Below are positions 951 through 21,044 of a stretch of 64,000 nt of DNA, piece after piece. The DNA is from Octopus vulgaris (lineage: Eukaryota): contig OX597817.1 in the NCBI GenBank assembly GCA_951406725.2, forward strand, positions 169,136,001-169,200,000. Reading direction: 5' to 3'. The translations under genes and the position numbers were made by a program. The number at the start of each line of letters is the position of its first letter. Position 1 is the first letter of the stretch. Under the pieces are notes generated by a model. That model worked only from the letters and a program-made list of their open reading frames with translations. It did no database searches and was not told where the DNA came from.

Positions 951-1472
951 TGACTGTTGGAGCATTGCCTTAAAGGGTTTTTAGTCAAAGAATTCAACTC
1001 CTGGACTTATTCTTTGTAAGTCTAGTACTTATTTTATTGGTATCTTTTGGTGATGAAAACACACCAACATCAGTTGTCAAGTGATGGTGGTGGGGAGACA
1101 AACAGAGGCACAAAGACACACAAATATATACATACACACACACATACATGTATATATACAACAGGCTTCTTTCAGTTTCCACTTACCAAATCTACAAACA
1201 AGCCTTTGGTTGGCCTGAGGCTATAGTAGAAGACACTTGCCCAAGGTGCCGAGCAGTGGGACTGAACCTATGTTTCAGTCATTGAATTGCAGCCATGCTG
1301 GGGCACTGCCTTGAAGGGTTTAGTCAGACAAATCAACCCCAGTACTTATTTTTCAAGTCTGGTACTTATTCTATCTGTTCAAACTGCCAAGTTACAGGGA
1401 CATAAACAAACCAGCACTGGTTGTCAGGCTGTTGTGGGGCATAAATACCAGTGTAAAGACACACACATAGAT

Positions 1473-2444
1473 AGCAACATCACTTACTGCATCTCATGCT
1501 CTTTCTGTCCTCTGTACACCGGTCAAACGGAACACTGCTTGGCTGACCAGTTTGTGGAACACCTCTGAGACATCAGGCTTGGCAATGACACTCTGGTCTC
1601 GCGCCATTTCCACTCAACCAGTCATTCATTACAACACCTGTCTGTGTTCTGATTGTCCTTGCACAGAGGTCATCTGGACTCCAACCTTCAACATAAACAG
1701 AAATTAATCTTCTCTCTTCACTCCTTTGCACCACATGGACTCAACTCCCCCCTTTTCATCTGTCTTCCCTCCTCTCTTCACTCGCACCCACCTTTCCTCT
1801 CTTGCCCTGACACCTACTTCCTCTTCACTCCTACCCACCTTCTCCCTTCCATCCACACTCCACACCACCATCCCTATACATCCCAATCCCACCCCCACAA
1901 ATCCCACTTCACATACCCACCCCTACCCCCAAACCCACCCCACCCCCAACACCACCACAACACACCACACCACATCGCACCACCCTGCACACACTAGCAT
2001 TGACCACTTCCCAGCACCCACACCACCACACTACTCCATGTCACACCACAGCATACCATATCACACCACCCCACACACACTATCATCTACACACCTACAC
2101 ATGCATACACCCACATGTCAAGGTCACCAGCCCCAATCCAAATGTACACACATTCTCTCACATATACATGCACGTGCACCTTTGTTTTGGGATCATCACT
2201 ACTTTATTATCTCCTCTTCTTCCTTGCACTCATGTCTGACCATCTCCGTTCAGGCAGCTGCCATAATCAACCGCTAGCCACTAAAGTTTTTTTTATTCTC
2301 CCTCTGTTTATTTTCTCGTGTTCCTTTCTGTTGAAGAGTCTAGGCTCGAAACATAAAAGACTTTCTCACCTTCCCAAGTGTTAAACTAATACACCTGTTG
2401 TTTATACGCCTGTCTTCATCTTTTGCTTTTTTTTGTAAATTCCA

Positions 2445-2450
<6 letters not shown>
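1473..2450 (+). mobile_element. Penelope-like retroelement 3' end: GIY-YIG endonuclease pseudogene plus pLTR-like 3' region
   Basis: SNITYCISCSFCPLYTGQTEHCLADQFVEHL*DIR...VSRHF..TSHSL.HLSV...KLIFSLHSFAPHGLN with two stops; hammerhead-like motif at 2324-2359; ends in (TA)n. Confidence 0.8.
2324..2359 (+). ncRNA. Minimal hammerhead-ribozyme-like motif (variant core, degenerate)
   Basis: CTTT-CTGTTGAA-GAGTctagGCTC-GAAA-CATA-AAAG. Confidence 0.45.
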
Positions 2451-2515
<65 letters not shown>

Positions 2516-2654
2516 CGGGAAGCTTTATGAAAATGGACAAAAGACGAAGGCAGGTTTACGGAAATAAACAAAAGACGAAGGCAGGTGGAATACAAACAAA
2601 CAATTGTATATATATATATATATATATATAAATTAGAATTGTATATATATATAT

Positions 2655-2970
2655 AAATTAGAAAAAAAAACCCACCTTTTATCAATTCAATAATGAAAAA
2701 TTAAATTATACCATTTAAAAAAAATTACATATTATAGAAAGATTAAATATAAGATAAAACATATATAACAATGATTAAGTAATGTGCAAAATAATAAATA
2801 AACATATATACTTGGGATATATTTACGTTTTATTTATTATTTTGCACATTACTTAATCATCGTTATATGTTTTATCTAATATTTAATCTTTCTATAAGAT
2901 GTAATTTTTCTAAATAATATAATTTAACTTTTCATTATTGAATTGATAAAAGGTGGGTTTTTTCTAGTTT
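2655..2970. repeat. About 315-bp AT-rich fold-back (imperfect palindrome) flanked by (TA)n
   Basis: Arms AAACCCACCTTTTATCAATTCAATAATGAAAA... and ...TTTTCATTATTGAATTGATAAAAGGTGGGTTT; centre near 2812. Confidence 0.9.
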
Positions 2971-3061
2971 ATATATATATATTAAATTTTGTGAAAATAT
3001 AATATATATATTGCTTGTATTTATATGCATGTATATATACTTCAATTAGAGGTTGTATTAA

Positions 3062-3282
3062 CCCTTTCGTTACTGGATTTATTTTGAGATGCTGTGTGTT
3101 TCTTTCAATTATTTTAAAATATAACAAAGAATTTAGTAAAATATCTTAGTTATCATTAAGCTAGTGTTAGGAACATAAATTGTGACTAAGGTTTGGTGGA
3201 AGATTTTAATTCAAAACTTATGAAAGCCAGACATTTGTACTCAGAGCCAGAGCCAGTTTCAGTCGGGTTGGTAACGAAAGGG
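3062..3282. mobile_element. piggyBac-type MITE
   Basis: TTAA TSDs; TIR CCCTTTCGTTAC / GTAACGAAAGGG. Confidence 0.9.
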
Positions 3283-4375
3283 TTAACCTCATGAAGGGAT
3301 GGATTCATATAAAACATCCAAGGGTATATTTTTTCCCTCTGAAGGTATTATACTCGGGTCATATAAATTTAATATTTACTTAATATTTATTGAGAATTAA
3401 TTGAAACAGCTGTAAGGGACGGTGATTAATTTGCTGTTAATAATAAACAATTATTAACTATCCAGTCTCCATTTTTTCTTCTTTTATATATGTATGTATG
3501 TATCATCATCATCGTTTAACGTCCACTTTCCATGCTAGCATGGGTTGGACGATTTGACTGAGGTTTGGCGAACCAGATGGCTGCACCCTGGTAGAGTTTA
3601 TACAGCTTGATGCCCTTCCTAACATCAGCCACTCCGAGAGTGTAGCGGGTTGCTTTTACGTGCCACTGGCACGAGAGCTAGACAGGCGGCACTGGCCACG
3701 GCCACGCTCAAATGGTGCTTTTTATGCGCCACCTGCACAGGAGCCAGTCCAGCGGTACTGGCAACGACTTCGCTCAAATGTTTTTTTCACGTGTCACCAG
3801 CATTGGTGCTAGTAAGGCAGCGCAGGTAACGATCATGCTCGAATGGTGTTTTTAACGTGCCATTGGCATGGAAGCCAGCTTGTTGCTCTGGCAATGATCT
3901 CACTCATGTGGTATTCTTAGCGCTCCACTAGCACGGATGCCAGTCATCGAATTTGATTTCGATTTCAATTCATATGTATGTATGTATGTATGTATAGGTG
4001 AAGGCTATGTAGTTAAGAAGTTTATAAGCAGCTATCAATGACTTGTAAGCACATGGTATTTCATTATGCAACCAGGATATGCTACAAAGTATATCAAAGG
4101 TTTTTATAAGTCAATACCATGAACTACTGTATCAGCAGTGCACCGAAGAGATGATCTTTATAAGCAGCGACCCTTGTTTCCAATTTTCTGTGGAAACATT
4201 TTTGGCCAGTGGGAAATATTACCTCGCTTGGAAAGTTGGCAACAGGAAGGGCAATCTCCCTCGACCAAGTCTGTTTGATGATGATGATGATGACAACAAA
4301 GACAATGATGATATGTATGTGTGTGGGTGGGTGTTGTAATGGGTATATGATGTCACATGTTTGGTAAAGATCACA

Positions 4376-4800
4376 TGGTATGCTGTGGTGTGACATGGAG
4401 TAGTGTGGTGGTGTGGGTGCTGGGAAGTGGTCAATGCTAGTGTGTGCAGGGTGGTGTGCGATGTGTGTGTGGTGTGTTGTGGTGGTGTTGGGGGTGGGGT
4501 GGGTTTGGGGGGTAGGGGTGGGTATGTGAAGTGGGATTTGTGGGGGTGGGATTAGGATGTATAGGGATGGTGGGGTGGAGTGTGGATGGAAGGGAGAAGG
4601 TGGGCAGGAGTGAAGAGGAAGTAGGTGTCAGGGCAAGAGAGGAAAGGCGGGTGGGAGTAAAGAGAGGAGAGAGGAGGGAAGTCAGATGAAGAGGGGGGAG
4701 TTGAGTCCATGTGGTGCAAAGGAGTGAAGAGAGAAGATTAATTTCTGTTTATGTTGAAGGTGGGAGTCCGGATGACCTCTGTGCAAGGACAATCAAAAAT
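4376..4800 (-). mobile_element. Inverted second copy of the Penelope-like segment 1645-2058
   Basis: Near-identical reverse complement of about 415 bp. Confidence 0.9.
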
Positions 4801-5162
4801 ACTAGTTGAAATTTGGGAGACAGAAGACCTTGTTGGCTGTATATGATGCACAAAGGTGTTTTTCGAGGTTTATGAAAGATGAATTTGCAGGAATTGCAGT
4901 AGTTGGTAAAAGCCACTCAGTGGAAGTGGATGACATTTTCCAGATGTTGCAGGCCATGTTCTGTATCTGTAGTGTGGTATGAAAACCACTAAGATGTATT
5001 AGAGGATTCTGGTGTTTCAACTTTTGGAGATATTGGGAAGAGATACGGTGGCATCATGGTTAAAAACTTTGCTTTGCAACCACATGGTTTTGGATTCAGT
5101 CCAACTGTAGCCTAGTCTGACTGATGCCTTGTGAGTGAATTTGATAGGCAGAAACTGTGTGA

Positions 5163-5435
5163 AAGGCGGCGAGCTGGCAGGAATGTTAGCACGCTGGGAG
5201 AAATGCTTCAAAGGCAGCAAGCTGGCAGAATCGTTAGAGGAGAAATGCTTCACGGTATTTCGTCTGCTGTTACATTCTGAGTTCAAATTCCGCCGAGGTT
5301 GACTTTACCTTTCATCCTTTCGGGGTCGATAAATTAATTAGCAGTTACGTACTGGGGTCAATGTAATCAACTTAATCCCTTTATCTGTCCCCCTCTATGT
5401 TTAGGTTTAGCCCCTGGTTGGCAATAAAGAAATAA
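5163..5435 (+). mobile_element. SINE family B with a duplicated head; other copies at about 17318, 20899, 23445, 35343-36390, 47324, 47968, 57465, 58017
   Basis: GGCGGCGAGCTGGCAGAA...GAGTTCAAATTCCGCCGAGGTCGACTTTGCCTTTCATCCTTTCGGGGTCGATAAA...AATAAAGAAATA recurs many times. Confidence 0.85.
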
Positions 5436-5929
5436 GAAACTGTGTGAAAGCCTACTGTCTGCCTATTATGTGTGTGTGTGCATGTGTTTGTTTAAGTTCC
5501 AGTGTGTGTGTTTATGTTCTATTGTGTGTGTGTGTGTGTGTGTATGTGTGCGTAAGTTCCAGTAACTTAGCGGTTCAGTAAAAGAAACTAATAGAATAAG
5601 TATCAGACTTAAAAATAAGCTCTAGGGTCAATTTGTTCAGTTAAACCATTCATGGCCACAATCAAATGATCAAAACAAGTAAAAGATAGGAGAGAGAGAG
5701 AGAGAGAGTGAGAGAATGTGTGTGTGTGTGTGTGTGTGTGTTTGTCTAGAATGGTGTGAGATGAAGCAAATGTCCTAAGAAATGATTTAAATATTGGTCA
5801 TGGCTGAAAGAGTTCAGAGAGCAGTTGAAGCAGCTGGTGGATTTAGAGCGGAGTTTCTCTTCCATCTTTTGCCTAACAATACCTTTGATTCCTATTTTTT
5901 TCTACTGGACTTCCAAAGTCGTTTGCTGT

Positions 5930-6346
5930 ATACTCTTTTACTCTTTTACTCTTTTAGTTGTTTCAGTCATTTGACTGCGGCCATGCTGGAGCACCACCTT
6001 TAATCGAGCAACTAGACCCGGAGACTTATTCCTTTGTAAGCCCAGTACTTATTCTATCGGTCTCTTTTGCCGAACCGCTAAGTGACGGGGACATAAACAC
6101 ACCAGCATCGGTTGTCAAGCAATGCTAGGGGGACAAACACAGACACACAAACACACACACATACACATACATATATATACATATATACGACGGGCTTCTT
6201 TCAGTTTCCGTCTACCAAATCCACTCACAAGGCATTGGTCGGCCCGAGGCTATAGTAGAAGACACTTGCTCAAGGTGCCACGCAGTGGGACTGAACCCGG
6301 AACCATGTGGTTGGTAAACAAGCTACTTACCACACAGCCACTCCTG
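5930..6346 (-). mobile_element. SINE family A (tRNA-derived, CORE-like, internal microsatellite)
   Basis: A box TGGCTGTGTGG, B box GGTTCAGTCC, ACCTTG.GCAAGT, internal (TA)/(TG), tail (AGTAAAAG)n; more than 20 copies or fragments in the window. Confidence 0.9.
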
Positions 6347-7260
6347 TAGAAGAAAATTTTACTGTATTTTTGTAATTAAATATTATTAGAAAATGCATAA
6401 AAGAAATTAAAATATTTTGTGTATTGTTGGAGTATAACCCATTTGTTGCACATAAATTTTGACAATAAAATCTTATATGGCGGTGATGACAAGAGACTGT
6501 GACCTTTGTCGATTTGCTATGATCGAGGACTGTCAAACCAAGTGAAATCATTGTTGTGGCTAGTGCTCATAACATGTAAAAGGCATCAGAACCAGTGACA
6601 TGTAATAAGCACCTACTCTTGGAGTGGTTAGTGTTAGGAAGGACACCCAGCAGTAGAAACCAAGCCAAATCAAACTGGAGCCTAGTACAGCTCTCTGGCT
6701 AACCAGACCTAGTCGAATTGTCTAACCCATGCCAGTATGGAAAAACAGACGCTGAATGATGATGATGATGATGATGACCACTCCCAGGGGCCATAGGGAC
6801 CAAAATTGAGAATGACTGGTTTGGAGGGATGAGGAATGGATACTTTGACTCATATTAACAGGAAATCTTTTGTTACTGATACTTGCTGATCTGACCCTTT
6901 CCCTGTCAAATACATCTCAGTCAGTATCTGAGAGGTACAGGGTTCGATTCTCTGTAGCCACCTGCTGGCAACTGCTTCTGTCTTCTAAGGCTATTTATCC
7001 AATCTTCTAAGCTGTTTTCACAACTATCCTGTGTTCGAGATTTACTTAATTTTCTGTAAAATATGTATGGCATGAAACCACGATGATATTTTGGCTCATT
7101 GACTGATGAGGAAGACTTAAGTGTGAATATTCCATGTATCGTGTCTTTGTCTATATTTCCCATCTGTTAAGTTTTTGTCTAGTTTCCCATTTGCTCTGCT
7201 TTCGTCTAACTTTTTCTCCTTGTGTTCTGTCTGTTCAACTCTTGATATATATATATATAC

Positions 7261-7309
<49 letters not shown>

Positions 7310-7374
7310 ATACAAATTTTTTAGTCATTTTAAATTTATATCTTAAAAATATTGATTATTTTTAGATTTGAAAT

Positions 7375-7420
7375 CCACCTGATGAATGTCCTTAGAAGAG
7401 ACACGAAACAATTGTAGTGG
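7375..7420 (+). ncRNA. Minimal type-I hammerhead ribozyme motif
   Basis: CCAC-CTGATGA-aTGTCcttagaagaGACAc-GAAA-CAATTG-TA-GTGG: stem I CCAC/GTGG, palindromic helix III ACAATTGT, GUA triplet. Confidence 0.7.
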
Positions 7421-7513
7421 CGAATTTAATTTTATTTAATTTATATAAAATTATTTATGTATTGGATTAAGTCTTTCTTTGTTTGATTTGCATAATAGTG
7501 GTTTTGTCTCTAA

Positions 7514-7578
<65 letters not shown>

Positions 7579-7607
7579 TATATATACATACATATATATA
7601 TATATAT

Positions 7608-7800
7608 TGGATCGTTAGCCCCTGCACGCAATTTTTTTCTCTCCCTCCTTGTTTTTTTCTGTGTATCTTTCTGTCAAAGAGCGTAGGCTCGAAACGTAAA
7701 AGACTTGTTTTATTTCTATTCCTGAGCGCCATACTAATACACTGTTTGTTTGTACTCCACCTGCCTTCGTCTTTTGTTTATTTTCGTAAACCTTCTCGTT
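7608..7800 (+). mobile_element. Short Penelope-pLTR-derived element between (TA)n tracts; hammerhead-like motif at 7666-7703
   Basis: Homologous to 2270-2450; TCTTT-CTGTCAAA-GAGCgtagGCTC-GAAA-CGTA-AAAGA. Confidence 0.7.
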
Positions 7801-7989
7801 ATATATATATATATATATACATACTGAGACCTCTAGAGATATGCTGTGACTGCGAAGATCTGACAAATAAAGTGAGTCCATGGCGTATCCTACACCAGCT
7901 TCACATAACCAGCCCCAGCCCATTCAAAGTATCTTGGATTGTAGGACGACCTTCTGTGCTTACCTTGGATCGAAGGGTGACCTGATGTG

Positions 7990-8703
7990 CTTGAAGAGAC
8001 CTATTAAGTCAAGTACATCAACATCAAAATAAAAATCAAATGGAAATTGTAGTTGTGATACCTGTCCTGGTGACACGTAAAAGGCATCATCCAAACGTAG
8101 CCGATGCCAGTGGCATGTAAAAAGCACCAACCGATCATGGCCGTTGCCATCCTCCTCTGGCCCCTGTGCCGGTGGCATGTAAAAAGCACCCACAACACTC
8201 ACAGAGTGGTTGACATTAGGAAGGGCATCCGGCTGTAGAAACACTGCCAGATCAGACTGGAGCCTGATGCAGCCTCCTGGCTTCTCTGACCTTGGTCGAG
8301 CCGTCGATCCATGCTAGCATGGAAAACAGACATTAAACGATGATGATGATGATGATGATATATATCATCATCATCATCATCATCATTTAGCATCCGCTTT
8401 CCATGCTAGCATGGGTTGGACGGTTCAACTGGGGTCTGGGAAGCCAAGAGGCTGCATCAGGCTCCAGTCTGATCTGGCAGTGTTTCTACGGCTGGTTGCC
8501 CTTCCTAACGCCAACCACTCCGTGAGTGTAGTGGGTGCTTTTTACGTGCCACCCGCACAGGTGCCAGACGGAGCTGGCAAACGGCCATGATCGGATGGTG
8601 CTTTTTACATGCCACCGGCACGGAGGCCAGTCGGGGCGGCGCTGGCAACAGACACGGTCGGGTGGTGCTTTTTACGTGCCACCGGCACGGGGACCAGGCG
8701 AGG

Positions 8704-8705
<2 letters not shown>
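7990..8705. mobile_element. Tail-to-tail pair of RTE 3'-end fragments
   Basis: + copy ends in (GAT)n at about 8358; - copy begins (CAT)n at about 8364; both carry GTGGTTG.C.TTAGGAAGGGCA.CC.GC.GTAGAAAC. Confidence 0.85.
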
Positions 8706-8743
<38 letters not shown>

Positions 8744-8791
8744 CACATATATATGTATATATATGTATATATATATGTATGTATGTATATA

Positions 8792-8831
<40 letters not shown>

Positions 8832-8884
8832 GTATGTATGTATGTATATTTATGTATGTATAGATAGATAGATAGATAGATATA

Positions 8885-10088
8885 TTGGGTTGGCAACTAA
8901 GTTCCCGCCGTTTTTTAAAATTTAAGTTTTTTAAAAGGTTTAATAAGAAATAACAACTAATTAATAAATAATGTACTCACCCTTGTTATTTACAACTTCT
9001 TTCCAACGTTCAACAAGATTTTCAATACCTCATTGGTAGAAATCACCTGATTTCAACTTGAAAAATTCATCCAACCAAGCTCTCAATTCTGCATCAGTAT
9101 TGAATGAAACACCATGCATAGCATTTGAAAGAGATCGAAAGAGGTGGAAATCCGTTGGTATCAAATCAGGAGAGTACGGCGGGTGTGGCAGCACTACCCA
9201 GCCATTCGTCTGAATGGCTTCCTTGGTCATATTGACGATATTGGGGTGGGTGTTGTCGTGCAGCAGAAAAGCTCCATGCTGCCGATTAGGTCTTTTCTCT
9301 TGAATAGCTGTGTTGAGTCGTTCCATCTGTTGAACATAGAGTTCTGCGTTCACCATTTGGTTCCATTCAAGCAATTCATAATGGATAATCCCTTCCCTGT
9401 CCCATCATATGCACAACATTGTTTTACATGGGTGAAAATCTTGTTTAACGGGGCTAAGCCATTCCTTACATTGCTTCATATTGATGTACAGGTACCATTT
9501 TTTGTCGCCAGTAACGATTCAGTAAAGAAATAATTACTTGTGTCCATGAGTGACGAGCAAGCAAACCAGCGGAGATTGTGGCTTGTTGATTTTTGCTGTT
9601 GTCACTTAAAGCATGCAGAACCCGTGCTCCATGCTTCTGAACCTTTCCTATCAAGTGAAGATGCTTCTCTATAGCAGTGTGGGAGCATTCCATTTTCTCT
9701 GCTAGTTCCCTTGTCGTTTGATGAAAATTTTCATGCAAAAGTTGGTTTAATTGCTCTTCATCGAACTCAACTGGATGGCCAGAATGAGGTGTGTCTTTGA
9801 GGTCAAAATTTCCATTTTTGAACTTGGCATACAAATCACAAACAGTTCTTTCAGCTATTGCACCATCTCCATACACAGCACAAATGTTATGAGCAGCTTT
9901 TGCGGCCTTGACACCTTGATTATAAGCAAAGAGAAGTAGGTGTCGAAAATGCTTCTTTTTCTTAACTTGACATTCCAGTTTAATGATCTGAAAATAAACG
10001 GAAATAAACAAAAATTAACTAGAAAATTTAAGAAACCAATAAATTCCAAAATTAAAAAAAAAAAAACGGTAGGAACTTGCCAACCCTG
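8885..10088 (-). mobile_element. Near full-length mariner transposon; transposase pseudogene about 8961-9978
   Basis: TA flanks; TIRs GGGTTGGCAA(ctaa)GTTCC..CCGTTTTTT; motifs VTGDKKW, LHDNTHPN, HPPYSPDLIPTDFHLF; apparent start codon reads CTG; frameshift and stops. Confidence 0.93.
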
Positions 10089-10090
10089 TA

Positions 10091-10124
<34 letters not shown>

Positions 10125-11368
10125 AACACACCATCATCGGTTGTCAAGCGATGCTGGAGGGACAAACACAGACACACAAACATATACACACACATATATA
10201 TATATATACAGGAGTGGCTGTGTGGTAAGTAGCTTGCTAACCAACCACATGGTTCCGGGTTCAGTCCCACTGCGTGGCACCTTGGGCAAGTGTCTTCTGC
10301 TATAGCCCCGGGCCGACCAATGCCTTGTGAGTGGATTTGGTAGACGGAAACTGAAAGAAGCCTGTCGTATATATATATATGTATGTGTGTGTTTGTGTGT
10401 CTGTGTTTGTTCCCCTAGCATTGCTTGACAACCGATGCTGGTGTGTTTACATCCCCGTCACTTAGCGGTTCGGCAAAAGAGACCGATAGAATAAGTACTG
10501 GGCTTACAAAGAATAAGTCCCGGGGTCGATTTGTTCGACTAAAGGCGGTGCTCCAGCATGGCCGCAGTCAAATGACTGAAACAAGTAAAAGAGTATATAT
10601 ATATGACGGGCTTTTTTCAGTTTCCGTCTACCAAATCCACTCACAAGACCCGAGGCTATAGTAGAAGACACTTACCCAAGGTGCCATGCAGGGGGACTGA
10701 ACCCGGAACCATGTGGTTGGCAAGCAAGCTACTTACCACACAGCCACTCCTACACCTCGTTAAAATAATATTCAAAGTGTTTTATATGATCAGAAATATA
10801 GTTTTAAAGTGTTGATGGTGTCATAGTGAGGATTTGATTAGACTTAGCAATTAAAAAATGTAGGAGAATTTTCAAATATTAATAAAGTGGAACTTTTATT
10901 TTCCATCTGACTGTTAGTTTTGTTTCATTTTGAAAAATAAAAATGTATTTTTGGTTTATTGCTTTATATTTTGAATTAGTGGCTGTGTGTTAAGTAGCTT
11001 GTTTACCAACCACCTGGTTCCGAGTTCAGCCCACTGCATGGCACCTTAGGCAAGTGTCTTTTACTATAGCCTCAGGCCAACCAAAGCCTTGTGAGTGGAT
11101 TTGGTAGACGGAAACTGAAAGAAGCCCGTCGTATATATGTATATATATATATGCATGTGTGTGTTTGTGTGTCTGTGTTTGTCCCCCTAGCATTGCTTGA
11201 TAACCGATGCTGGTGTGTTTATGTCCCTGTTACTTAGCAGTCCGGCAAAAGAGACCGATAGAATAAGTACTGGGCTTACAAAGGAATAAGTCCCGGGGTC
11301 GAGTTACTCGATTAAAGGCGGTGCTCCAGAATGGCCGCAGTCAAATGACTGAAACAAGTAAAAGAGTA
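10125..11368. mobile_element. Cluster of SINE A copies: + 10209-10593 nested in a - copy (10125-10205 and 10605-10752), and + 10978-11368
   Basis: Family A consensus on both strands. Confidence 0.85.
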
Positions 11369-11388
11369 AATATATATATATATATATA

Positions 11389-12995
11389 CCCAGTGTAAGC
11401 TATGGACACATAAGAGGTGCAGCAATGTCAAAGGTAGGCTAACTGGGAAGATAGTTTTTGTATGTGGCAGATGCTCAGGAGCATTAACCTCCGAAAATCT
11501 GCAGAAAATAACTTCAGTCACTTTCCAAGGGGAAAAACTAGAAGTAGTTGATAGCTTCCGTTATCTAGGTGACCAAGTCAGTAGTGGGGGTGGGTGCGCT
11601 GAAAGTGTAACTGCTAGAATAAGAATAGCCTAGGCAAAGTTTAGGGAGCTCTTACCTCTGCTGGTGACTAAAGGCCTCTCGCTCAGAGTAAAAAGCAGAC
11701 TGTATGATGCGTGTGTACGAACAGCCATGCTACATGGCAGTGAAACATGGGCCGTGACTGCCGAGGATATGCGTAAGCTCGTGAGGAATGAAGCCAGTAT
11801 GCTCTATGGATGTGTAATGTCAGTGTACATACTCGACAGAGCGTTAGCACCTTGAGAGAAATGTTGTACCTAAGAGGCATCAGTTGTGGTGTGCAAGAGA
11901 GACGATTGCGCTGGTATGGTCATGTGGCGAGAATGGATGAAGATAGGTGTGTGAGAAAGTGCCAATCCTTAGCAGTTGAGGGAACCCGTGGAAGAGGTAG
12001 ACCCAGGAAAACCTGGGACGAGGTGGTGAAGCACGACCTTCGAACTTTAGGCCTCACTGAGGAAATGACCAGCGACCGAGACCTTTGGAAATATTCTGTA
12101 CGTGAGAAGACTAGGCAGGACAAGTGAGCCCAGCCCACTTATGAATGCCTTTCCTCCCTTGGACACAAAGACCTGTTGGGGCAAGCGAAGTCGATATAGA
12201 ACCTCATCTGATGACAGGCACCCATGCCAACCCCCTTTGCTTGCGAAGACATGTTGGGGCAAGCGAAATCGAAATCGAAGTCAAAATCGAATTGAACCAG
12301 CCAGGATCCCTGGTCTGGTGGTACGTAAAAAGCACTATCCGACTCGTGGCCGATGCCAGCGCCGCCTCCACTGGCTTCTGTGCCGGTGGCACGTAAAATA
12401 CGCCAATCTGACCGTACGACAGGCACCCATGCCAACCCCCTTGCTTGCGAAGACATGTTGGGGCAAGCGAAATTGAATTGAACCAGCCAGGTTCCCTGGT
12501 CTGGTGGTACGTAAAAAGCACTATTCGACTCGTGGCCGATGCCAGCGCCGCCTCCACTGGCTTCTGTGCCGGTGGCACGTAAAATACACCAATCTGACCG
12601 TACAACAGGCACCCATGCCAACCCCCTTGCTTGCGAAGACATGTTGGGGCAAGCGAAATCGAAATCGAATTGAACCAGCCAGGATCGTAAAAAGCACCAT
12701 CCGACTCGTGGCCGATGCCAGCACCGCCTCATCTGGCTTCTGTGCCGGTGGCACATAAAATACACCAATCCGACCGTGGCCGTTGCCAGCCTCGCCTGGC
12801 ACCTGTGCAGGTGGCACGTAAAAGCACCCACTACACTCACGGAGTGGTTGGCGTTAGGAAGGGCATCCAGCTGTAGAAACACTGCCAGATAAGACTGGAG
12901 CCTGGTGCAGCCTTCTGGCTTCCCAGATCCCCGGTCGAACCGTCCAACCCATGCTAGCATGGAGAACGGACGTTAAACGATGATGATGATGATGA

Positions 12996-12999
<4 letters not shown>
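11389..12999 (+). mobile_element. 5'-truncated RTE-clade LINE (ORF C-terminus to 12127, modular 3' UTR, (GAT)n tail)
   Basis: LWTHKRCS...LEVVDSFRYLG...YDACVRTAMLHGSETW...RGRGRPRKTW; premature TAG at about 11631 and a frameshift at about 11805; (TA)n on both sides. Confidence 0.93.
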
Positions 13000-13071
<72 letters not shown>

Positions 13072-13959
13072 AAGTACTAAAATGTTTTAAGTGTTTAGGG
13101 CTTCCAAGGATCTTGATCCAGTCCTGGACATGGCTTGCATTCCAGTAAGAGGTGATAGCTGGGCTCCATGTTGGATCTGTAACAGACAGCTTGCTGCCAA
13201 TTTCTTGGTTGTTTACAGTAATATGAAGAATTTGATCTTTGCAACACTACTCCATTTCAGTGATATTTTTGCACTTGTATTTTGTGTCATCCCCCCCATT
13301 GCTTGTGTTTTTTTTTTCTTTCTTATTTGTCCCACTTTCTAGAGAAAATTTCACTTTCGTTTTAACCAATCAATGTCATTTTTCCTTTAAACAATTTTTA
13401 AAATGTCAAACTAGAAATCGTGAATGGTGAACATAGTTTTGCTGACATCGCAGCTTTTGACGTTTACTTTCCAATTTTTTTTACTTCTTTTTTTCTTTCT
13501 TTTACCTAGTATTTGCATGCTATAGTTTGTAGCTTTGTCTGCTTCCAGGTTCACCGTTCCAAGAATAAGCTAAAAATTGTATTTATTTTAATTCACGTTA
13601 GAAAAGTTGTACGTGTTGATAACAAAGTAGAAAAGTGGCAAAAGAAGATTGGAAGAAGAGAAACGATATATAGAAAATAATAAAAAACCAGATTTGCGAA
13701 AACCTGTGAATTCCAGCAGAAAGGTAATAGAAAAGATGCAGAGAAGTTTTGACTTGACATGATCGGATGAAGTTTTAGATTGGATTAATCACTAACGATC
13801 AGTGATATTAAGGCTCCAGAAAACTGAGTCAAATGTTCGTATAAATTTTATTTATGCAAATAAAAAATTATTGATGTTACTACATGACTCCTAGAGTCTT
13901 CAGTTTCACGATCTTTCTTTAGGTTGAAGGCCTCCTTGGGAGATAACAAAAGTTGGTCC

Positions 13960-14053
13960 GGATAGATAAATAGATAGGTAGGTAGGTAGGTAGGTAGGTA
14001 GGTAGGTAGATAGATAGGTGGATAGATAGATAGAGAGATAGATAGATAGACAC

Positions 14054-14117
<64 letters not shown>

Positions 14118-14118
14118 C

Positions 14119-14150
<32 letters not shown>

Positions 14151-14165
14151 AAGACACAGACATAC

Positions 14166-14236
<71 letters not shown>

Positions 14237-14237
14237 C

Positions 14238-14277
<40 letters not shown>
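13960..14277. repeat. (GATA)n/(GGTA)n tetranucleotide microsatellite
   Basis: Direct reading. Confidence 0.97.
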
Positions 14278-14278
<1 letters not shown>

Positions 14279-14572
14279 TGGCCGATCTAAGGGGTTACCC
14301 TGGGTTTCACGTACATAAAGCCCTTAGCTTTACAACGTTTCTTCAGACCCTAAAACCCATTGGCTTGGGGACATGAGTTGAAGAGATTGATAACAAACAT
14401 TATAAGTGGAAGGACGCAATACACATAAAAGTGTTAAATATATTTTAAACGGGTTAACTGTAAAATTATCTTTGGAGATATATATATAAGTATATACACG
14501 CACATGTATGTATGTGTGTATACTGCAAGATATATGAGCTGGAAGGAAGGGGAGGGAGAAGAGAAAGAGAAG

Positions 14573-14574
<2 letters not shown>

Positions 14575-14607
<33 letters not shown>

Positions 14608-14763
14608 AATGAGAGGGAGCAGACGAAATCATTCTTTGAATCAGTAACAACAAACAGGCTGGGTCAATGTCAGGGTTCAGATAAGATTAATTTCGCGCAT
14701 TTGCCGAAAAGTCTTGAGAGTTGTTATTCGCCCGTATCGTTCACAACTTCCAATAACACGAAC
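14575..14763 (+). promoter_or_regulatory. Putative AMT promoter/5' UTR with (GA)n tract
   Basis: Unique, relatively CpG-containing sequence directly upstream of the ATG; (GA)n at about 14577-14603. Confidence 0.4.
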
Positions 14764-14874
14764 ATGACTTTGTCGCACATCGTTTTTAGTGGGATATCAT
14801 TAGGCACCCGGCTGGGTACCCGATCGCAACTGTTGCTGCTCAACTGTAGCAAAAGATTGTATTCCAGCACTGAG
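14764..14874 (+). CDS. AMT: AMT exon 1 (mitochondrial transit peptide MTLSHIVFSGISLGTRLGTRSQLLLLNCSKRLYSSTE)
   Basis: ATG then 37 codons rich in R/S/L/T with no acidic residue until the end; R-x-Y-S-S cleavage-like motif; GAG|gtaaag donor in phase 0 matches exon 2. Confidence 0.8.
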
Positions 14875-14984
14875 GTAAAGCGAAAAAGTTTTAACTTGTT
14901 TTATTACGATAAAAAAAAAAATTATTGTGTCTCTTGGTATATATACACGCTCATATTTTACTTCCATTCATGAATATATGCGTA

Positions 14985-15040
14985 TATGTATATATATATA
15001 TATACATACATATATATATACATACATATATATATATATG

Positions 15041-15071
<31 letters not shown>

Positions 15072-15155
15072 GTATATGTATATATATGTATGTATATATA
15101 TATATATATGTATGTATATATATATATGTATGTATGTATATATATACACACACAC
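14985..15155. repeat. (TA)/(TATG) compound microsatellite
   Basis: Direct reading. Confidence 0.95.
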
Positions 15156-15241
15156 AATTACAGCTCATATCAAAACATAAGCAGGTACAGACAAAGGTAC
15201 ATGCAGATGCGCGTACACACAACATCGAGTACATAAATATT

Positions 15242-15329
15242 GGCGGAGGTAAAGAATCCGTACCCACCACCCGTTTTCGGCCTAACAAAAACCCTAACTC
15301 TAAACACCGGGTGTGCGTATTCTTTCGCC
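15242..15329. mobile_element. Tiny MITE with GG termini and 8-bp TSD; second copy about 17619-17740
   Basis: TAAATATT on both sides; TIR GGCG..GTAAAGAAT.CGTAC / G.G.GCGTATTCTTT.GCC; internal CCCTAA-like units. Confidence 0.7.
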
Positions 15330-16301
15330 TAAATATTTATTAACACGTCTTTCTTTCGAATTTACTCGTGTTTGGTGTTCTTTATCTGTTTGCACATTAC
15401 GAATGCATCATGCACTCATAAACAGAAAATACACACACACAGATGTTTATTTCATCTTTCTTCTTCTCTTTTCGTTCCATATTTTTTCTGCGTCGTTCGT
15501 TTGTTCTTTCTCTCTCAATGTATCTCCTGACCTCCACCCATTATAGGATAACATTTACTGAAACAAAACCACGTGCTCGGAGTACAAGAGGAAAGGACTC
15601 TTGTGCGATCATGTAACCTGTTAGAAATAGCAGCCAAATTTCACTCAAATCGCGGTTTATCGACTTAAAAACAAGAAGGAACACGACGAATGATGTAGTT
15701 CAGGATACATTGCCCCCCCCCCCAAAAAAAAAACCCATCTGGAAAGGCACGGATGAAATCCTTTCTTTCATCGGGGTCAATTTGGGATTCAACAACACAC
15801 CACGTTACACTTATGTTACAATGGCGTGTCTACGGTGTCGCTCGACATGTTAGAAATAGTAGCCAATCTTCCTTAAGCTAATACATTATCATCTTAAAAA
15901 GAAGAACAGATGAAATGGTCGTAACTAGTATATCCGTAGTATACCACACTATATACTATCTTCACTATTCGAGCAATGTCTCTACTAGTTAACTTGAGCT
16001 GAAAAAAGACAAAGGCCCGACTGCTTTCTCAATCTAATTATCAGAATTTCAGAGGTTGTCTCCCTTCTATTTTTGACTAGAATTAATCATTTAGATTTTG
16101 ATTGTTTTCATCAGTTGGGTATAATTTTAAAACTAATTAACATTCAAATTCCTATATCTTATGGGAAAAGGGAAAAGGGTACGGAAATAAGGGGCGAAAT
16201 GTAAAAAATTAAAATATTTGGAAAAAGTTTATTTTGCCTTCATAATCGTATCTTCCGTTGTATGAAATATAAGAATACTGTAAAATAAAGGAAAAAAAAT
16301 A

Positions 16302-16717
16302 GGATCTTTTCGGTTTGACCGGCAGTTTTTAAAAATAATTTCCACGTAACTAAACACTTTTAAACTTCGTATACTGGTAGAATGTGTTTAAAAAACATCT
16401 TTTTCTCTTGGCTTTATTGAGAAAATTCTATAGTTTGTAAGTTTTTTGTTGTTGTCTTTTCTTCAATTTCTGCAATTTCAACCAATCAATGACGTGTATT
16501 GAGGTGAAAACATTCTGTGCCGTATGAATATGTCCCTCGTTTAAAAAACAGATTGGGTTTATTTACATTTGTGAAGAAAAAAGATACCCGTCCCCCCACC
16601 CTAACCCTAACCCTAAAACAGATTAAAATGCAATAGATCGATACTAGGTTCATAATTATGGGTGACAATTTCATATGACACCGCTAGAAAAAACTGCCAT
16701 TCAAACCGAAAAGATCC
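16302..16717. mobile_element. MITE with about 28-bp TIR, 8-bp TSD and an internal (CCCTAA)3 (Merlin-like)
   Basis: GGATCTTTTCGGTTTGA..GGCAGTTTT / AAAACTGCC..TCAAACCGAAAAGATCC; AAAAAATA on both sides. Confidence 0.8.
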
Positions 16718-16919
16718 AAAAAATATCTTTTCTTTTTTCATGAGGGCTGGCATTTCATTTCATGGCACACTACGTAAATAACCCTTGCAGACTTTAATAT
16801 TAAGTTAGCACGTAACAAGAGTCCCTGGGAATTTCTCCTAGTCATTCTCTCTAACTTCTAACGTCGCTATTTGGTCCACAAAAATTATAATTTTCTATTC
16901 AAGTTATATCTGCAATACA

Positions 16920-16958
16920 TTTGCTGATGAGGCTTCATAATGTTGAAACATGTCTGGA
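16920..16958 (+). ncRNA. Degenerate minimal hammerhead motif
   Basis: tttg-CTGATGA-GGCttcataatGTT-GAAA-CATG-TC-tgga; palindromic ACATGT, GUC triplet; stems mostly G-U. Confidence 0.45.
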
Positions 16959-17270
16959 GTTGTCACCGACTGCTGAAGGTGAAGCTCGCTACCCACTGCA
17001 TTCAATATTTAACAAGCGATCCTCGACTGAACAACATCAGGTTCACAGTAAAGCAATTTTGTTGTAGTTTCATGATGTATATCTACTATCAGAGCCATCA
17101 TTTTTTTTGTTACTCTTCACAAACGGCCTTGTTTATTTACTTTCACTTTTTGTCACAAGGACTGTTTTTTTCTTTTTTTGTGGCAGGGGCTGCAATTAAG
17201 ATGCTCATTGTTGTTCATAAGCAAAATAAAAAAAAAATGAATAAAAGTAAAAGAATTCTGATAAATCGAA

Positions 17271-17317
<47 letters not shown>

Positions 17318-18151
17318 TATTTCTTTACTACCCACAAGGGGCTAAACACAGAGAGGGGACAAACAAGGACAGACAAAGGGATTAAGTCGATTACATCGAC
17401 CCCCTAGTACGCAACTGGTACTTAATTTATCGACCCCGAAAGGATGAAAGGCAAAGAGATCAATTGTAAAAGTAATATTCGTCCATCTTTGAAATCAACA
17501 AATTCCCAAAATTTCTAATATATCGAAAAAACAAAACAAAAACAAACAAAAAATGCACTAACTAAGCAAAAAAACAAAAAAAACAAAACAAGAATTCATG
17601 AGAAAATAAGAAAAATGAAGCGAAGATAAAGAATACGTACAACACCTGTTTTCGGCGTAACAAAAACCCTGACCTTAAACCCCAACCCTAACTATAACCC
17701 TAAACTCTAACCACCGGGTATGCATATTCTTTACTTCACCGAAATCATCATCATCATCGTTTAACGTCCGTTCTCCATGCTAGCATGGGTTGGACGGTTC
17801 GACTGGGGATCTGGGAAGCCAGGAGGCTGCACCAGGCTCCAGTCTTATCTGGCAAAGTTTCTACAGCTGGATGCCCTTCCTAACGCCAACCACTCCGTGA
17901 GTGTAGTGGGTGCTTTTTACGTGCCACCTGCACTGGTGCCAGGCGAGGCTGGCATCGGCCATGGTCGGATTGGTGCATTTTATGGAAGCCAGTCAAGGTG
18001 GCACTGGCTTCGGCTACGATTCGGAATATGATACAAAATTCGAAATCCCTCTCAACAGCATCATTATTTTAGATTATGATGGAGTCTCATAAAACAGTCA
18101 AAAAGTGAAAGCGAACAAAATGGGTTACGGTAATCCCTCAACTATCGCAGA

Positions 18152-18560
18152 TACTCTTTTACTCTTCTACTTGTTTCAGTCAGTTGACTGCGGCCATGCT
18201 GGAGCACCGCCTTTAAGGGAGCAAATCGACCCCGGGACTTATTCTTTGTAAGCCCAGTACTTATTCTATCAGTCTCTTTTGCCGAACCGCTAAGTGACGG
18301 GGACGTAAACACACCAGCATCGGTTGTCAAGCAATGCTAGGGGGACAAACACAGACACACAAACATATACACACATATATATATATATACATATATATAC
18401 GACAGGCTTCTTTCAGTTTCCGTCTACCAAATCCACTCACAAGGCATTGGTTGGCCCGGGGCTATAGCAGAAGAGACTTGCCCAAGATGCCACACAGTGG
18501 GACTGAACCCGGAACCATGTGGTTGGTTAGCAAGCTACTTACCACACAGCCACTCCTGCA
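18152..18560 (-). mobile_element. SINE A, young full-length copy
   Basis: Near-identical to copies at 37243, 42236 and 52452. Confidence 0.9.
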
Positions 18561-19954
18561 CCTATGTTACATTCCAAAAATACTGTACTGTATATTTTAA
18601 AATTATTTTTATAATTTGTATATATTTATTTTATTATAAATGCAAAACATCACCACGGAGGAATCGACGTAAGCTTAAATAATAAACCGCAATATGATGA
18701 GGGTCTATTGCATTTGATAAAAGTAAAACAAAAAAGAAAAAAATATTCAGGTTCTCATAAAAAGATACATATATCATGTAGCGAAACCGATGTTAACTCA
18801 ATAATCACTGTTAATTTTAATTAATTAAAATTTCCAGGGGTTGCCTCCCCTACTTTTTTTTTTTTTTTTTTACCTGACTTTTTTTTTTTTTTACCTGACT
18901 TCGATAATCCTAATGTTCATCAATAATATTTAGCAATCTTATAATTTTGATAGCCTAAAATATTTCGGCCGACTACATTAAGTATTCTTTCTAGTCCACA
19001 CTATTAGATACTGAATCTAAGGAAGTTGACCTTAGGTGGAACAACAACAACAGGAAACAGCCTTCATATGTAGAGGTCAAATTCAGAAATATACAAAATA
19101 GACATCCACCTACACCAAATATCATCATCATCGTCATTAAACAGCTGTTGTCCATGCTGGCATGGGTTGGATGGTTTGACCAGGGCTGTACAGATTCCAG
19201 TCTGATTTGGCATGGTTTCTACGGCTGAATGCTTTTCCTAACATCAACCATTCTGAGAGTGTAATGGGTGCTTTTATGTGCCACTGGTGGCGGGTGTCAG
19301 TTGTGTGGCACCAGTATCCGCCATGCCTTGAAGAAACAACTCCTGTATTGTTGCTTGTCACCTCCTTGAGCCACTTCTTTCTCCCTCACCTGCTCCCTAA
19401 CATGCTGATATTTACCATCAAATACTCCTTTACCTCATTTAGAGAATGTGTGGGCTTAGACTACGTGCCCTCCATTGGTCAGTTAAAGTTTAGACAGTGT
19501 CATGTGACAACTTGCTGGGGCTGCCTGTTGGAGCCTAGTAACAGGTATTTAAAGGGAAATTTGACAAGACAGTCAGTCGCCCGCTGACACTCGTTGGTGC
19601 TACATCGAAGAGGCCAAGGGACAGAAGAAAGAAGGAGAAAGAAGACATGCACCCAACACCACAGTTGAAGACATCTCCAAAAGAAATTGGGGCTGCCACG
19701 TCAAAACGGTAGAGGAGTAGTGGCCAAAACTGGACGTGGTTCCTCCTGATGATGTCTTGAGCTAACTGGATCCTATAAAGGAGCTGTTGTGGTAGCAGAC
19801 CACGAAACATGGTTGAAATTCCGTTTTTTTCATCACTCGCTACATCCATCTCTAATTCAATCCCTAACCACCTGTCACTCTCCTCACACTCTTAAGAAGT
19901 TACCTATCCTTTCGGAAATTACCCTTTTCTTCCTTCCTTATTCGCAGTCTATAT

Positions 19955-20355
19955 CAGTGGTTCTCAACTGTTTTTGCTTATGGACCCCCCTTTGATTCCT
20001 ATTTTACTGAGATAGACCCTCATAAAAAGGTAAAGTTATCTTCTGGGTTTCATGGCATATATTACCCCCACACCTGGACAGGACACCAGTCCATCATAAA
20101 ATTACTCATTTTTGCCAACTGAATGGACTGAAGCAATGTGAAATAAAGTGTTTTGCTCAAGAACACAACATGTTGCCCGGTCCAGGAATTGATACCACAA
20201 TCGTATGATCATGAATCCAACACCCTAACCACTAAGCCATGCACCTCCACATAGCCTCTCATAGCTATTTGATGTTTAAAAAATCCTATTATAACTGTTA
20301 TAATTAAATATTTATAGGAATTGCATAAAAAATTGTTAAAGTATTTTGTGTATTA
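19955..20355 (+). mobile_element. hAT/Charlie-like MITE fragment with nested SINE tail; related copies at about 6360-6480 and 27755-28235 (-)
   Basis: CAGTGGTTCTCAAC terminus; shared internal AT-rich sequence. Confidence 0.6.
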
Positions 20356-20455
20356 TTATTATTGCCATACAGTCTGAGAGTATGGAGGGAATTGGTGCAT
20401 AAGTGTGCATGCACAGGTGCTTTGATGAACATGTGTGTGTGTATGATTGTGTGCA

Positions 20456-20496
<41 letters not shown>

Positions 20497-20498
<2 letters not shown>

Positions 20499-20636
20499 GA
20501 AATTTATGAAAAAAACAACAAAAGACGAAGACAGGTGGTGTACAAAACAAACAGTTGTATTAGTATAACGCTCAGGAATAGAGAAAGTCTTTTACGTTTC
20601 AAGCCTACGCTCTTCTACAGAAAGGGACACAGAAAA
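20497..20636 (-). mobile_element. Short Penelope-pLTR-derived element at (TA)n; hammerhead-like motif at 20589-20624
   Basis: Minus strand CTTT-CTGTAGAA-GAGCgtagGCTT-GAAA-CGTA-AAAG. Confidence 0.7.
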
Positions 20637-21044
20637 TATATGTATATACATGTATATATGTGAATGTTTGAATCTGTCATTATATGCATGATGTAAGTGG
20701 ATATCTGCTTCTGATTGGTATAGATGTGTGCAGGTGGAAGAATGTCGGGTAGCTGACACCCACTTTGCCTGACTATCTAAGAGCTGATATTATAAACCTG
20801 TCAAATAAAGTGACCACTTACATCGTTCATCTCTGATATATGGCAGTGGTTGTTCATACTGTAGTTGATATTCTTGTTACTATTATTATTGTCATTTAAG
20901 GTAGCAAGCTGACAGAACTGTTAGCATGCTGGAGAAAATGCTTAGTGGTATTTCATCTGCTGCTACGTTCTGAGTTCAAATTCCACCGAGGTCAACTTTG
21001 TCTTTCATCCTTTCGGGGTCGATTAAATAAGTACCAGTTATGCA

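Follow-up and report, generated by a model that had tools for sequence, protein, structure and literature searches.

The three hammerhead-like motifs in the 64,000-nt stretch of Octopus vulgaris DNA analyzed here (the window) are copies of the pseudo-LTR (pLTR) of an autonomous Neptune-type Penelope-like retrotransposon (PLE), not a separate mini-element. The preliminary description had ascribed them to a Penelope-derived, non-autonomous element. The Penelope origin was borne out, as an identical motif flanks full-length Penelope-type ORFs; the separate non-autonomous element was not, because the same motif flanks intact young full-length ORFs and the short copies share a fixed 3′ end.

Motif copies in the window and the full-length element

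The minimal hammerhead layout was seen three times in the window (Table 1), at the sites first proposed, with the earlier span of copy 2 (7666-7703) including one extra stem I U-A pair. A scan of both strands allowing up to 8 substitutions found no motif in the window beyond these three. One exact 35-nt pattern had 8,017 matches in the genome and its reversed control 0, and the three-copy layout is therefore not a product of chance. Homology among the copies covers ~150-185 nt and stops at a (TA)n tract ~90-100 nt 3′ of the motif. All three have U at core position 6 (U6) and an extra A after position 9; the latter had been presented as a second deviation, but the published consensus already reads CUGANGAH. 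The alternative letters in the layout first described are changes at CpG sites, each occurring in one copy only. Copy 1 has G16.2>A plus one change in stem II; its stem III palindrome is disrupted by a CpG change, and the predicted cut would lie after 2355. Copy 2 has G8>A at 7676, which disrupts the C3-G8 pair, and copy 3 has C11.1>U. An Rfam scan of the window (E ≤ 5) returned no hammerhead family, with microsatellite-driven miRNA matches only.

Table 1. Features of the PLE copies in the window.
Feature	Position	Strand	Remarks
Relic, C-terminal CxxC/GIY-YIG endonuclease region of Neptune-type ORF	1434..1748	+	tblastn
Copy 1, C/A-rich 3′ UTR and upstream pLTR part	1749..2323	+	
Minimal type-I hammerhead motif, copy 1	2324..2359	+	older subfamily, U6 at 2331, U7
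Remaining pLTR of copy 1, to the element's fixed 3′ end	2360..2449	+	
(TA)n target tract of copy 1	2450..2514	.	
Two tiny 3′-end fragments (~50-60 nt), younger subfamily, without hammerhead	2504..2609	-	
Inverted local duplicate of copy 1 endonuclease end and 3′ UTR	4375..4798	-	
Copy 2, solo pLTR of ~190 nt, flanked by two (TA)n tracts	7604..7800	+	younger C7 subfamily
Minimal hammerhead motif, copy 2	7667..7702	+	U6 at 7674, C7
Copy 3, short 3′-end copy, A7 subfamily	20496..20638	-	
Minimal hammerhead motif, copy 3	20589..20624	-	U6 at 20617, A7

The GIY-YIG relic reported upstream of one motif is genuine and forms the 5′ end of copy 1. It carries two in-frame stops and is 64% identical to aa 863-957 of an intact family ORF (tblastn, E 2e-28); the motif lies 554 nt downstream of the stretch searched (1470-1770), and a TCAG site, where short family copies tend to start, is found inside copy 1 at 2250-2253. 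The two tiny fragments entered the (TA)n tract of copy 1 from the opposite side. The inverted duplicate is 94.8% identical to 1647-2059 and lacks the hammerhead. Copy 3 starts ~14 nt upstream of its motif and runs into (TA)n at 20458-20495.

Full-length elements are 4.5 kb long, with a single ORF (RT, Cys linker, GIY-YIG) between two pLTRs. Two motifs 4.47-4.57 kb apart bracket a long open frame in 14 of 18 young loci (the first ones examined), and a 15th has three motifs in tandem. In those 14 loci, the two repeats are 97-99.8% alike and the upstream repeat extends 209-1,411 nt above the motif. Intact 4.5-kb elements are 99.2-100% alike across 1.9 kb of ORF. Partial tandems form pseudo-LTRs as in other PLEs, with the junction order pLTR-TATATA-5′UTR. 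From a set of 58 long young loci, 35 were oriented by probe and 23 dropped; CUGUUGAA was the reading of every downstream motif (35) and every upstream motif (24) in the oriented loci. The U6 motif is thus present in both repeats of young intact elements. The genome holds at least 25,133 3′ ends of this family.

The ORF matches RVT_1 above cut-off (aa 454-643, E 1.4e-7) and GIY-YIG weakly, below cut-off (aa 874-907, E 0.0066), and contains the motifs ADKG, PKIHK and YIDD. EN+ Penelope-like elements are organized in this way, their one ORF combining RT with a C-terminal GIY-YIG endonuclease. CX4CXXC at aa 836 and CXXC at aa 877, ahead of YIG, conform to the CX2-5CXXC linker of Neptune; this linker is also found in Nematis and Naiad. 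The RT segments resemble the Neptune1_Ap and Neptune1_Nv rows of a published alignment in a by-eye comparison, and homologues at 37-59% identity include named proteins from gastropods, a shark and a turtle. Placement in the Neptune clade is provisional, drawing on motifs and the by-eye Neptune1_Ap match rather than on a tree. The C-terminal GIY-YIG, linker, (TA)n bias and partial tandems agree with the Neptune clade as described by Craig et al. (2021, PMC8557442), whereas the very high copy number, U6 core, long 5′ leader and low-complexity ORF tail set the octopus element apart; the Octopus families given in the part of that paper covered here are Naiad and Hydra only.

A lineage-wide U at core position 6

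The suggestion that U6 is a family-level state held up genome-wide. Among one-pattern genomic matches, 23,042 have U at position 6, 839 have A and 826 have C/G, counts that show U6 to be fixed in this lineage. Distinct motifs picked regardless of core had U6 in 58/61, departing from the A6 of CUGANGA, and G8 in 61/61. As foreseen, CUGANGA descriptors overlook the family, missing 23,868 of the 24,707 motifs of this layout in the genome (97%). A shifted register with the U as an insertion was rejected, since C3-G8 pairs only in the register used.

A6 is kept in sister families and metagenome relatives, together with stem covariation. The metagenome relatives yielded 11 descriptor matches in 10/80 loci, all A6 and none U6, with many of the 80 loci too short to contain the repeat. 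U6 combined with another stem II was found in 39 matches, mostly scattered double changes, and no second family emerged. In a pLTR tree of 209 rows, built by a quick method and for the most part weakly supported, one all-A6 sister clade was recovered plus scattered A6 copies. The tree requires 14 label changes, a number reflecting that A6 rows were deliberately sought, and stops short of proving a single origin of U6.

The minimal type-I hammerhead scaffold proposed at the outset is present, with covarying stems I and II, a palindromic stem III and the bulge after A9. In 15 hand-picked motifs, 91.5% of cells were paired (slid controls 27-39%) with two-sided change at 6/11 pairs, and the score was reached by 0/500 shuffles. 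This covariation derives mostly from other families, however, and inside the U6 lineage none was found, two-sided change of one stem II pair occurring in the above 39 matches only. Columns varying by more than 15% numbered 0/29 in core and stems vs 20/54 downstream (Fisher p 7e-5, which overstates certainty as the copies are related). N7 varies in 61% and N17 in 16%; across subfamilies, turnover at these two free positions contrasts with a scaffold that is held. These data do not establish selection for U6 itself, as it is a single position and 34/54 downstream columns also vary by less than 15%. Contig depth was maximal on the motif in 8/8 runs and loose ends cluster at the motif edges, in contig layouts from which ends and expression levels are not readable; these contigs are uninformative on U6 in other organisms because the variant tables omit known position-7 variation.

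The octopus motif shares with the minimal hammerheads of metazoan PLE pLTRs (Cervera and de la Pena 2014, PMC4209133) the short stem I, a bulged nucleotide between 9 and 10.1, G10.1-C11.1 and a palindromic CG stem III, as well as its presence in both pLTRs and the predominance of solo genomic copies, which those authors ascribed to truncated PLEs. It differs in U6 and a stem II of 4 bp. A6 occurs in all 44 rows viewed of their Fig. S3, where the descriptor demanded A6, and the core variant reported in the portion of that paper covered is U3-A8. Earlier publications already describe the extra A, the solo copies and the targeting of (TA)n. A natural A6U and this octopus family were unreported in the literature searched, and no measurement of A6U activity was found there; Lunse et al. 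(2017), Repbase and Dfam lay beyond this scope and may include either. The parts covered of PMC6155905, PMC11014351 and PMC13282606 added nothing on position 6, and 'hammerhead' and 'Neptune' were not encountered in the main text of the last as far as it was available.

Copy ends and (TA)n targets

Copy ends were mapped in 88 copies picked by a 3′-end anchor (90 loci, 2 dropped). The proposed (TA)n association is strong, with (TA)3+ found 15-24 nt past the anchor in 72/88 of these anchor-picked copies compared with 2.4% of random positions. Copies share a fixed 3′ end, located at a short TA run within the element and abutting (TA)n. Their 5′ limits are spread between 16 nt and 3.4 kb above the anchor, with 62/88 copies reaching less than 200 nt above it, and pile up ~80 nt upstream of the motif. 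Within a window of -6 to +8 around the TCAG site, 26/68 motif-bearing copies begin; 3 begin in the 34 nt upstream and 15 reach more than 40 nt past the site. The shared upstream start of many short copies probably reflects the 5′ end of an RNA. However, 0 of 24 long copies passing the upstream repeat stop at the TCAG site, against the expectation of a simple transcription-start model. The TCAG site is also similar to a splice acceptor.

Of the 'mini-element' in the original description, the clustered start within a 15-nt window (26/68 motif-bearing copies) survives, but the copies have no unit of their own. They carry the same sequence as intact pLTRs, with continuous 5′ extents, in place of a non-autonomous unit distinct from an autonomous partner. 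Each sampled subfamily contains long members, and in the pLTR tree short and long copies are mixed, the youngest clade having near-identical short and full-length repeats. No retrozyme-like head-to-tail short arrays occur among the tandem repeats of the window, the copies examined being either dispersed solos or units of 4.5 kb. Animal non-LTR retrozymes (bioRxiv 10.64898/2026.07.22.740005, as far as covered) are likewise non-coding, hammerhead-bearing and pLTR-related, but they form tandem arrays with a hammerhead per unit, unlike the dispersed octopus solos matching the end of a coding element.

Predicted activity and competing explanations

The A6U change likely weakens cutting, a judgement in which A6C data and pooled statements serve as stand-ins. 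In the published work covered, changes in the CUGA turn lead to low activity (PMC9901934), and the natural A6C hammerhead of phage Bcep176 cleaves at <0.1/min (PMC3088659), poorly in Mg2+ and still actively in Mn2+ (PMC7151607). Bcep176 parallels our motif in having a natural pyrimidine at position 6 with low Mg2+ activity; it is a single, Mn2+-preferring C6 sequence tested in vitro (PMC3088659; PMC7151607), whereas the octopus U6 motif is of the dimer type, minimal and fixed in tens of thousands of retrotransposon copies. Folding predicts a U6-A15.1 pair (P 0.50-0.99) that closes the core in 6/6 natural U6 copies. This fold argument is weak, because A6 copies are predicted to misfold as monomers too and an active dimer of bare 36-mers is favoured for neither U6 nor A6. 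Hand tallies of 5′ junctions, confined to (TA)n junctions, placed 10 of 47 loci at the cut register vs 11 at a TA control in loop II among the matches listed (100 of 428), and 10 vs 7 of 48 loci in a second set (100 of 200), no excess in either; the same absence is expected if cut RNA is simply unused as template.

We favour, with moderate confidence, an explanation in which the motifs are end-repeat copies, incomplete at the 5′ side, from an autonomous Neptune-type PLE in which U6 runs through one long-lived lineage; the hammerhead fold likely cuts weakly or not at all and is yet likely kept for a job in the RNA. The endonuclease of the element would nick a (TA)n tract, and the end so exposed would anneal to the short TA run that follows the hammerhead by ~100 nt. 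From this point inside the RNA, reverse transcription would start and pass through the uncut hammerhead. RNAs beginning at the TCAG site would give solo repeats of 190-200 nt, long and more-than-unit copies would stem from longer or multi-unit RNAs, and cleavage would be dispensable for insertion. The model is the Poseidon element PAc of Anolis carolinensis, which has an internal RT start downstream of its hammerhead, AT-rich targets and an uncut RNA template, and whose hammerhead mutants still insert (Frangieh et al. 2024, PMC11167929, in the part covered). PAc comes from a different PLE clade. Its start codon falls within the hammerhead region, in contrast to the octopus motif, which lies ~770 nt upstream of the first ATG (in L110), and the optional tail of PAc was not seen in the octopus element.

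A U6 motif working as a ribozyme in vivo, rescued by the element protein, dimer formation or Mn2+, appears rather unlikely. It would cut multi-unit transcripts into units, possibly ligated into circles serving as templates of more-than-unit copies. C3-G8, G5, G12, A13, A14, A15.1-U16.1 and the palindrome are all held, N17 is G in 1/61 only, 24/24 long copies reaching the upstream repeat extend 288 nt or more past its motif, and there is precedent in the anole hammerhead, which cleaves only with its own protein (PMC11167929), and in the Mn2+ activity of A6C (PMC7151607). Against this, 68/88 copies were copied through an intact site, cut-site junctions lack an excess among the matches listed, the predicted U6-A15.1 pairing closes the core, and a tandem array such as L123 could supply multi-unit RNA without circles. 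The TCAG starts and the many copies reaching less than 200 nt above the anchor would also suit a self-propagating ~190-nt non-autonomous mini-element, transcribed from TCAG and relying on the Neptune protein for re-copying in trans, and non-autonomous pLTR derivatives have been proposed (bioRxiv 10.64898/2026.07.22.740005). The intermixing of short and long copies and the long members of each sampled subfamily make this improbable; moreover, the short copies are without the stretch 3′ of the RT start on which the anole protein depends, and most start just past TCAG, so that TCAG itself would be missing.

It is very improbable that the motif is a dead passenger, descended from one master copy that lost A6 with no time for the rest to decay. 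U6 is confined to one lineage with one stem II, in vitro insertion did not require cleavage (PMC11167929) and Naiads proliferate without a canonical hammerhead (PMC8557442), but position 7 switched several times along the subfamily ladder (from U through C, G, A and C to U), flanks diverged when core and stem columns did not, and inter-subfamily homology falls at the motif edges. In a more far-reaching reading, plausible but less likely than not, the hammerhead would have given up catalysis and be kept as a fold, its core closed by U6-A15.1, serving the Neptune protein or the RT start as a cis element.

The role of hammerheads in PLEs has been called unclear, possibly that of mere passengers (PMC8557442). 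The octopus family offers a natural experiment, in which a lineage swapped a near-invariant base, held the fold through subfamily turnovers and still yields near-identical intact copies. A6 sister families reside in the same genome, and natural U6 and A6 motifs one letter apart can be compared directly. Published PLE hammerhead counts may be far too low, given the 97% missed here. If U6 merely cuts slowly, the finding is a modest addition to natural core variants; if the motif is a fold only, tens of thousands of insertions would point to a PLE hammerhead selected for something besides cutting.

The motif and its parent element

The three hammerhead motifs named in the preliminary description were confirmed as the sole matches in the window at up to 8 substitutions. 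As RNA, each has a stem I of CUUU/AAAG, a core of CUG-U-N-GA plus one extra A, and a stem II of GAGC/GCUC with a 4-nt loop, together with GAAA, the palindrome ACGU and N17 (position 17). An Rfam scan of the window left the motif undetected. The extra A after position 9 had been read as a deviation, but the published consensus, CUGANGAH, itself has an extra nucleotide (PMC4209133, in part). Downstream, the three copies share ~100 nt more and each ends at (TA)n, while copy 1 reaches ~890 nt upstream into a CxxC/GIY-YIG endonuclease relic. Every copy carries at least one private CpG change. The (TA)n of copy 1 is directly followed by an AT-rich inverted repeat of ~400 nt with arms 85% alike; a related piece lies elsewhere in the window, and similar sequence flanks copy 2 and one further locus (L026).

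In the genome (2.8 Gb in 227 contigs), the motif was found 0.2–0.8 kb downstream in 17 of the 30 best relic matches (window included), and RT-like frames lay upstream in several of the 30. A search with a piece of the RT returned 11,146 candidates, and the 150 scored included many young copies with open frames of up to 1,214 aa. The proposed link to Penelope ORFs held: 14 of 18 young loci have an intact ORF between two motifs, followed mostly by (TA)n, with a spacing of 4.47–4.57 kb; the others comprise one three-motif tandem and three loci ending short of the upstream motif. Fourteen copies of this parent element are 99.2–100% identical over 1,910 nt. Its 1,080-aa ORF contains RVT_1, a CX4CXXC linker and CXXC-YIG and matches, by eye, the Neptune rows of a published alignment, which would place the element among Neptune-type Penelope-like elements (PLEs). 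In the youngest subfamily, as in locus L110, there is no stop directly after the endonuclease and the ORF continues for ~100 Pro/Ser/Leu-rich codons, variable in length; older copies stop after GLNSPPLFI. The 3' end of the element is a short TA run, which in tandems runs on into the 5' leader and might base-pair with a (TA)n tract nicked as target. Recently active Penelope families have been reported from Octopus vulgaris.

Coordinates of the motifs and associated features (window positions unless a locus is named)
Feature	Position	Strand
Hammerhead motif, copy 1	2324-2359	+
Hammerhead motif, copy 2	7667-7702	+
Hammerhead motif, copy 3	20589-20624	-
Endonuclease relic	1434..1748	+
TCAG site, window	2250-2253	
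TCAG site, L110	~7737	-
ORF extension after endonuclease, L110	3652-3990	-
Tail-to-tail copies sharing one (TA)n	2450-2609	
AT-rich inverted repeat	2616-3011	
Piece related to the inverted repeat	27102-27324	
A6 sister family	L024:1079-1230; L130; L135; L145; L148	
Tandem array, young subfamily, full multi-unit locus (at least 3 motifs 4.5 kb apart)	L123; G000:C6:117391500-117401400	
Metagenome relative with U3-A8 core	L376:320-370	
Exon-like frames, presumably glycine cleavage system T protein-like	~25880-26200; ~30400-30570	+; +
Stretches we take to be transposon relics (mariner transposase, LINE reverse transcriptases, R4/Dong-type restriction-like endonuclease)	9030-10014; 11792-12127; 33226-34305; 36500-36931; 55767-56399	-; +; -; +; -

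Position 6 and constraint on the scaffold

U at core position 6 (U6), normally A (A6), had been proposed as a family-level state, and the genome counts agree. Holding the flanks to those of a single subfamily gave 8,017 U6 and 91 A6 matches; with stem II left free there were 23,042 with U, 839 with A and 826 with C or G (controls 2–4), lower bounds because matches were exact. In 35 long young loci, each of the 59 motifs carries U6, and U6 with an altered stem II pair is rare (39 matches). The A6 set includes further families, whose stems differ and covary, and a sister family that has a canonical core and another tail, with stem II unchanged and GUUU/AAAC as stem I; this sister family is a ready-made control for comparing cleavage. 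Of the 80 metagenome loci that carry related ORFs, 10 gave a total of 11 descriptor hits, all with A6, the most similar reading CUGAYGA-A-GGGC-loop-GCUC-GAAA-CR-UC; since A6 prevails in these relatives and in the other families, it is likely the ancestral state. One metagenome relative (L376) has a compensated U3-A8 core like that described for Schistosoma. A UUCG loop and a stem II U-U mismatch (GUGC/GCUC) mark an old U6 subfamily represented by two copies (L273, L276).

To sample copies, we used a 17-nt anchor that lies 60 nt beyond the motif on its downstream side (25,133 genome matches, control 0) and took 90 of its first 91 positions on one contig (C1), of which 88 were usable. Over 61 distinct motifs, departures from the majority base averaged 2.0% for the core and 3.6% for the stems, compared with 14.6% for the downstream flank; at N7 (position 7) the figure was 61% and at N17 it was 16%. 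Columns departing by more than 15% numbered 0 of 29 in core and stems versus 20 of 54 in the flank, a comparison whose p-value is only a guide given the recognition limits (up to 10 substitutions, no indels) and the common ancestry of the copies. A tree of 209 repeats was ladder-like, with several turnovers at N7 while U6 persisted, and each of the window copies belongs to a different subfamily (1 and 2 by the tree, 3 by A7 and flank). These patterns indicate that the scaffold of the U6 motif is still constrained. The anticipated stem covariation was found across several families, with two-sided change in 6 of 11 pairs over 15 hand-picked motifs; the alignment establishes the hammerhead fold for this multi-family group, not covariation inside the U6 lineage.

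Cutting and the origin of short copies

Minimal hammerheads in the end repeats of PLEs (pLTRs), solo copies and low-rate dimer cleavage have been published (PMC4209133, in part). Position 6 appears important from mutants of the CUGA turn, which have low activity (PMC9901934, in part), and from a natural A6C hammerhead, which cleaves at <0.1/min (PMC3088659, in part), the A6C defect in Mg2+ being rescued by Mn2+ (PMC7151607, in part). Neither a natural A6U nor the ribozyme of this family was found in the literature searched, a search outside which the most relevant study, Lunse 2017, lay. In folding predictions U6 pairs with A15.1, extending a helix over G5 and C15.2 (P 0.50–0.99 in 6/6 U6 copies; in 8/8 A6 copies G5-C15.2 does not exceed 0.2), which is only a hint because A6 copies show other misfolds. 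An intact cut site was copied through in 68 of 88 copies, so that the RNAs behind them either had not been cut or had been ligated again. Junctions with (TA)n at the cut register were about as frequent as at a loop II TA control, at 10 versus 11 (47 loci) and, in a second set, 10 versus 7 (48 loci, duplicated array merged), both among the matches listed. The most likely reading is that the motif cuts weakly or only under certain conditions and has kept its fold. The motif is a putative ribozyme that would work like, and descends from, a minimal type-I hammerhead, from which it departs in lacking A6.

The suggested (TA)n enrichment was confirmed, with (TA)3 or longer within 90 nt of the anchor in 82/88 copies (control 23%) and at 15–24 nt in 72/88 (control 2.4%), and a (TA)n bias is known for Neptune-type elements (PMC8557442, in part). 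In the window and at six loci (L016, L024, L036, L176, L215, L219), copies lie tail to tail across a single (TA)n, in some cases from different subfamilies or families, so the tract that an earlier insertion left behind appears to have served as a target again.

The 5' extents of the 88 copies range from 16 to 3,461 nt (median 156), and the short copies are evidently 5'-incomplete, as was proposed for solo motifs in 2014 (PMC4209133, in part). In the 68 motif-bearing copies of the anchor set (L229–L318), 26 begin at −6 to +8 of a TCAG...CGCCATG site ~80 nt upstream of the motif and 24 within 75 nt downstream of TCAG; 3 begin at −20 to −7, none at −40 to −21 and 15 far upstream. The pile-up has the appearance of an RNA template's 5' end, and the site may be a transcription start, as TCAG resembles the initiator (Inr) consensus and Inr-like starts have been described in pLTRs, or a 3' splice acceptor, whose features (CTGAC, pyrimidines, YAG) are present too. 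An internal RT start, as known from the anole Poseidon element (PMC11167929, in part), on an RNA beginning at TCAG would yield a solo repeat of ~200 nt. Against the simple start-site version, no second-pass stop at TCAG occurs among 24 long young copies, a weak contrast since first-pass stops there account for only 2 of 8 short copies in the same youngest subfamily.

As a clean natural comparison, the U6 lineage is of value for asking what purpose PLE hammerheads serve, and its counts show how large the blind spot of standard hammerhead descriptors is.
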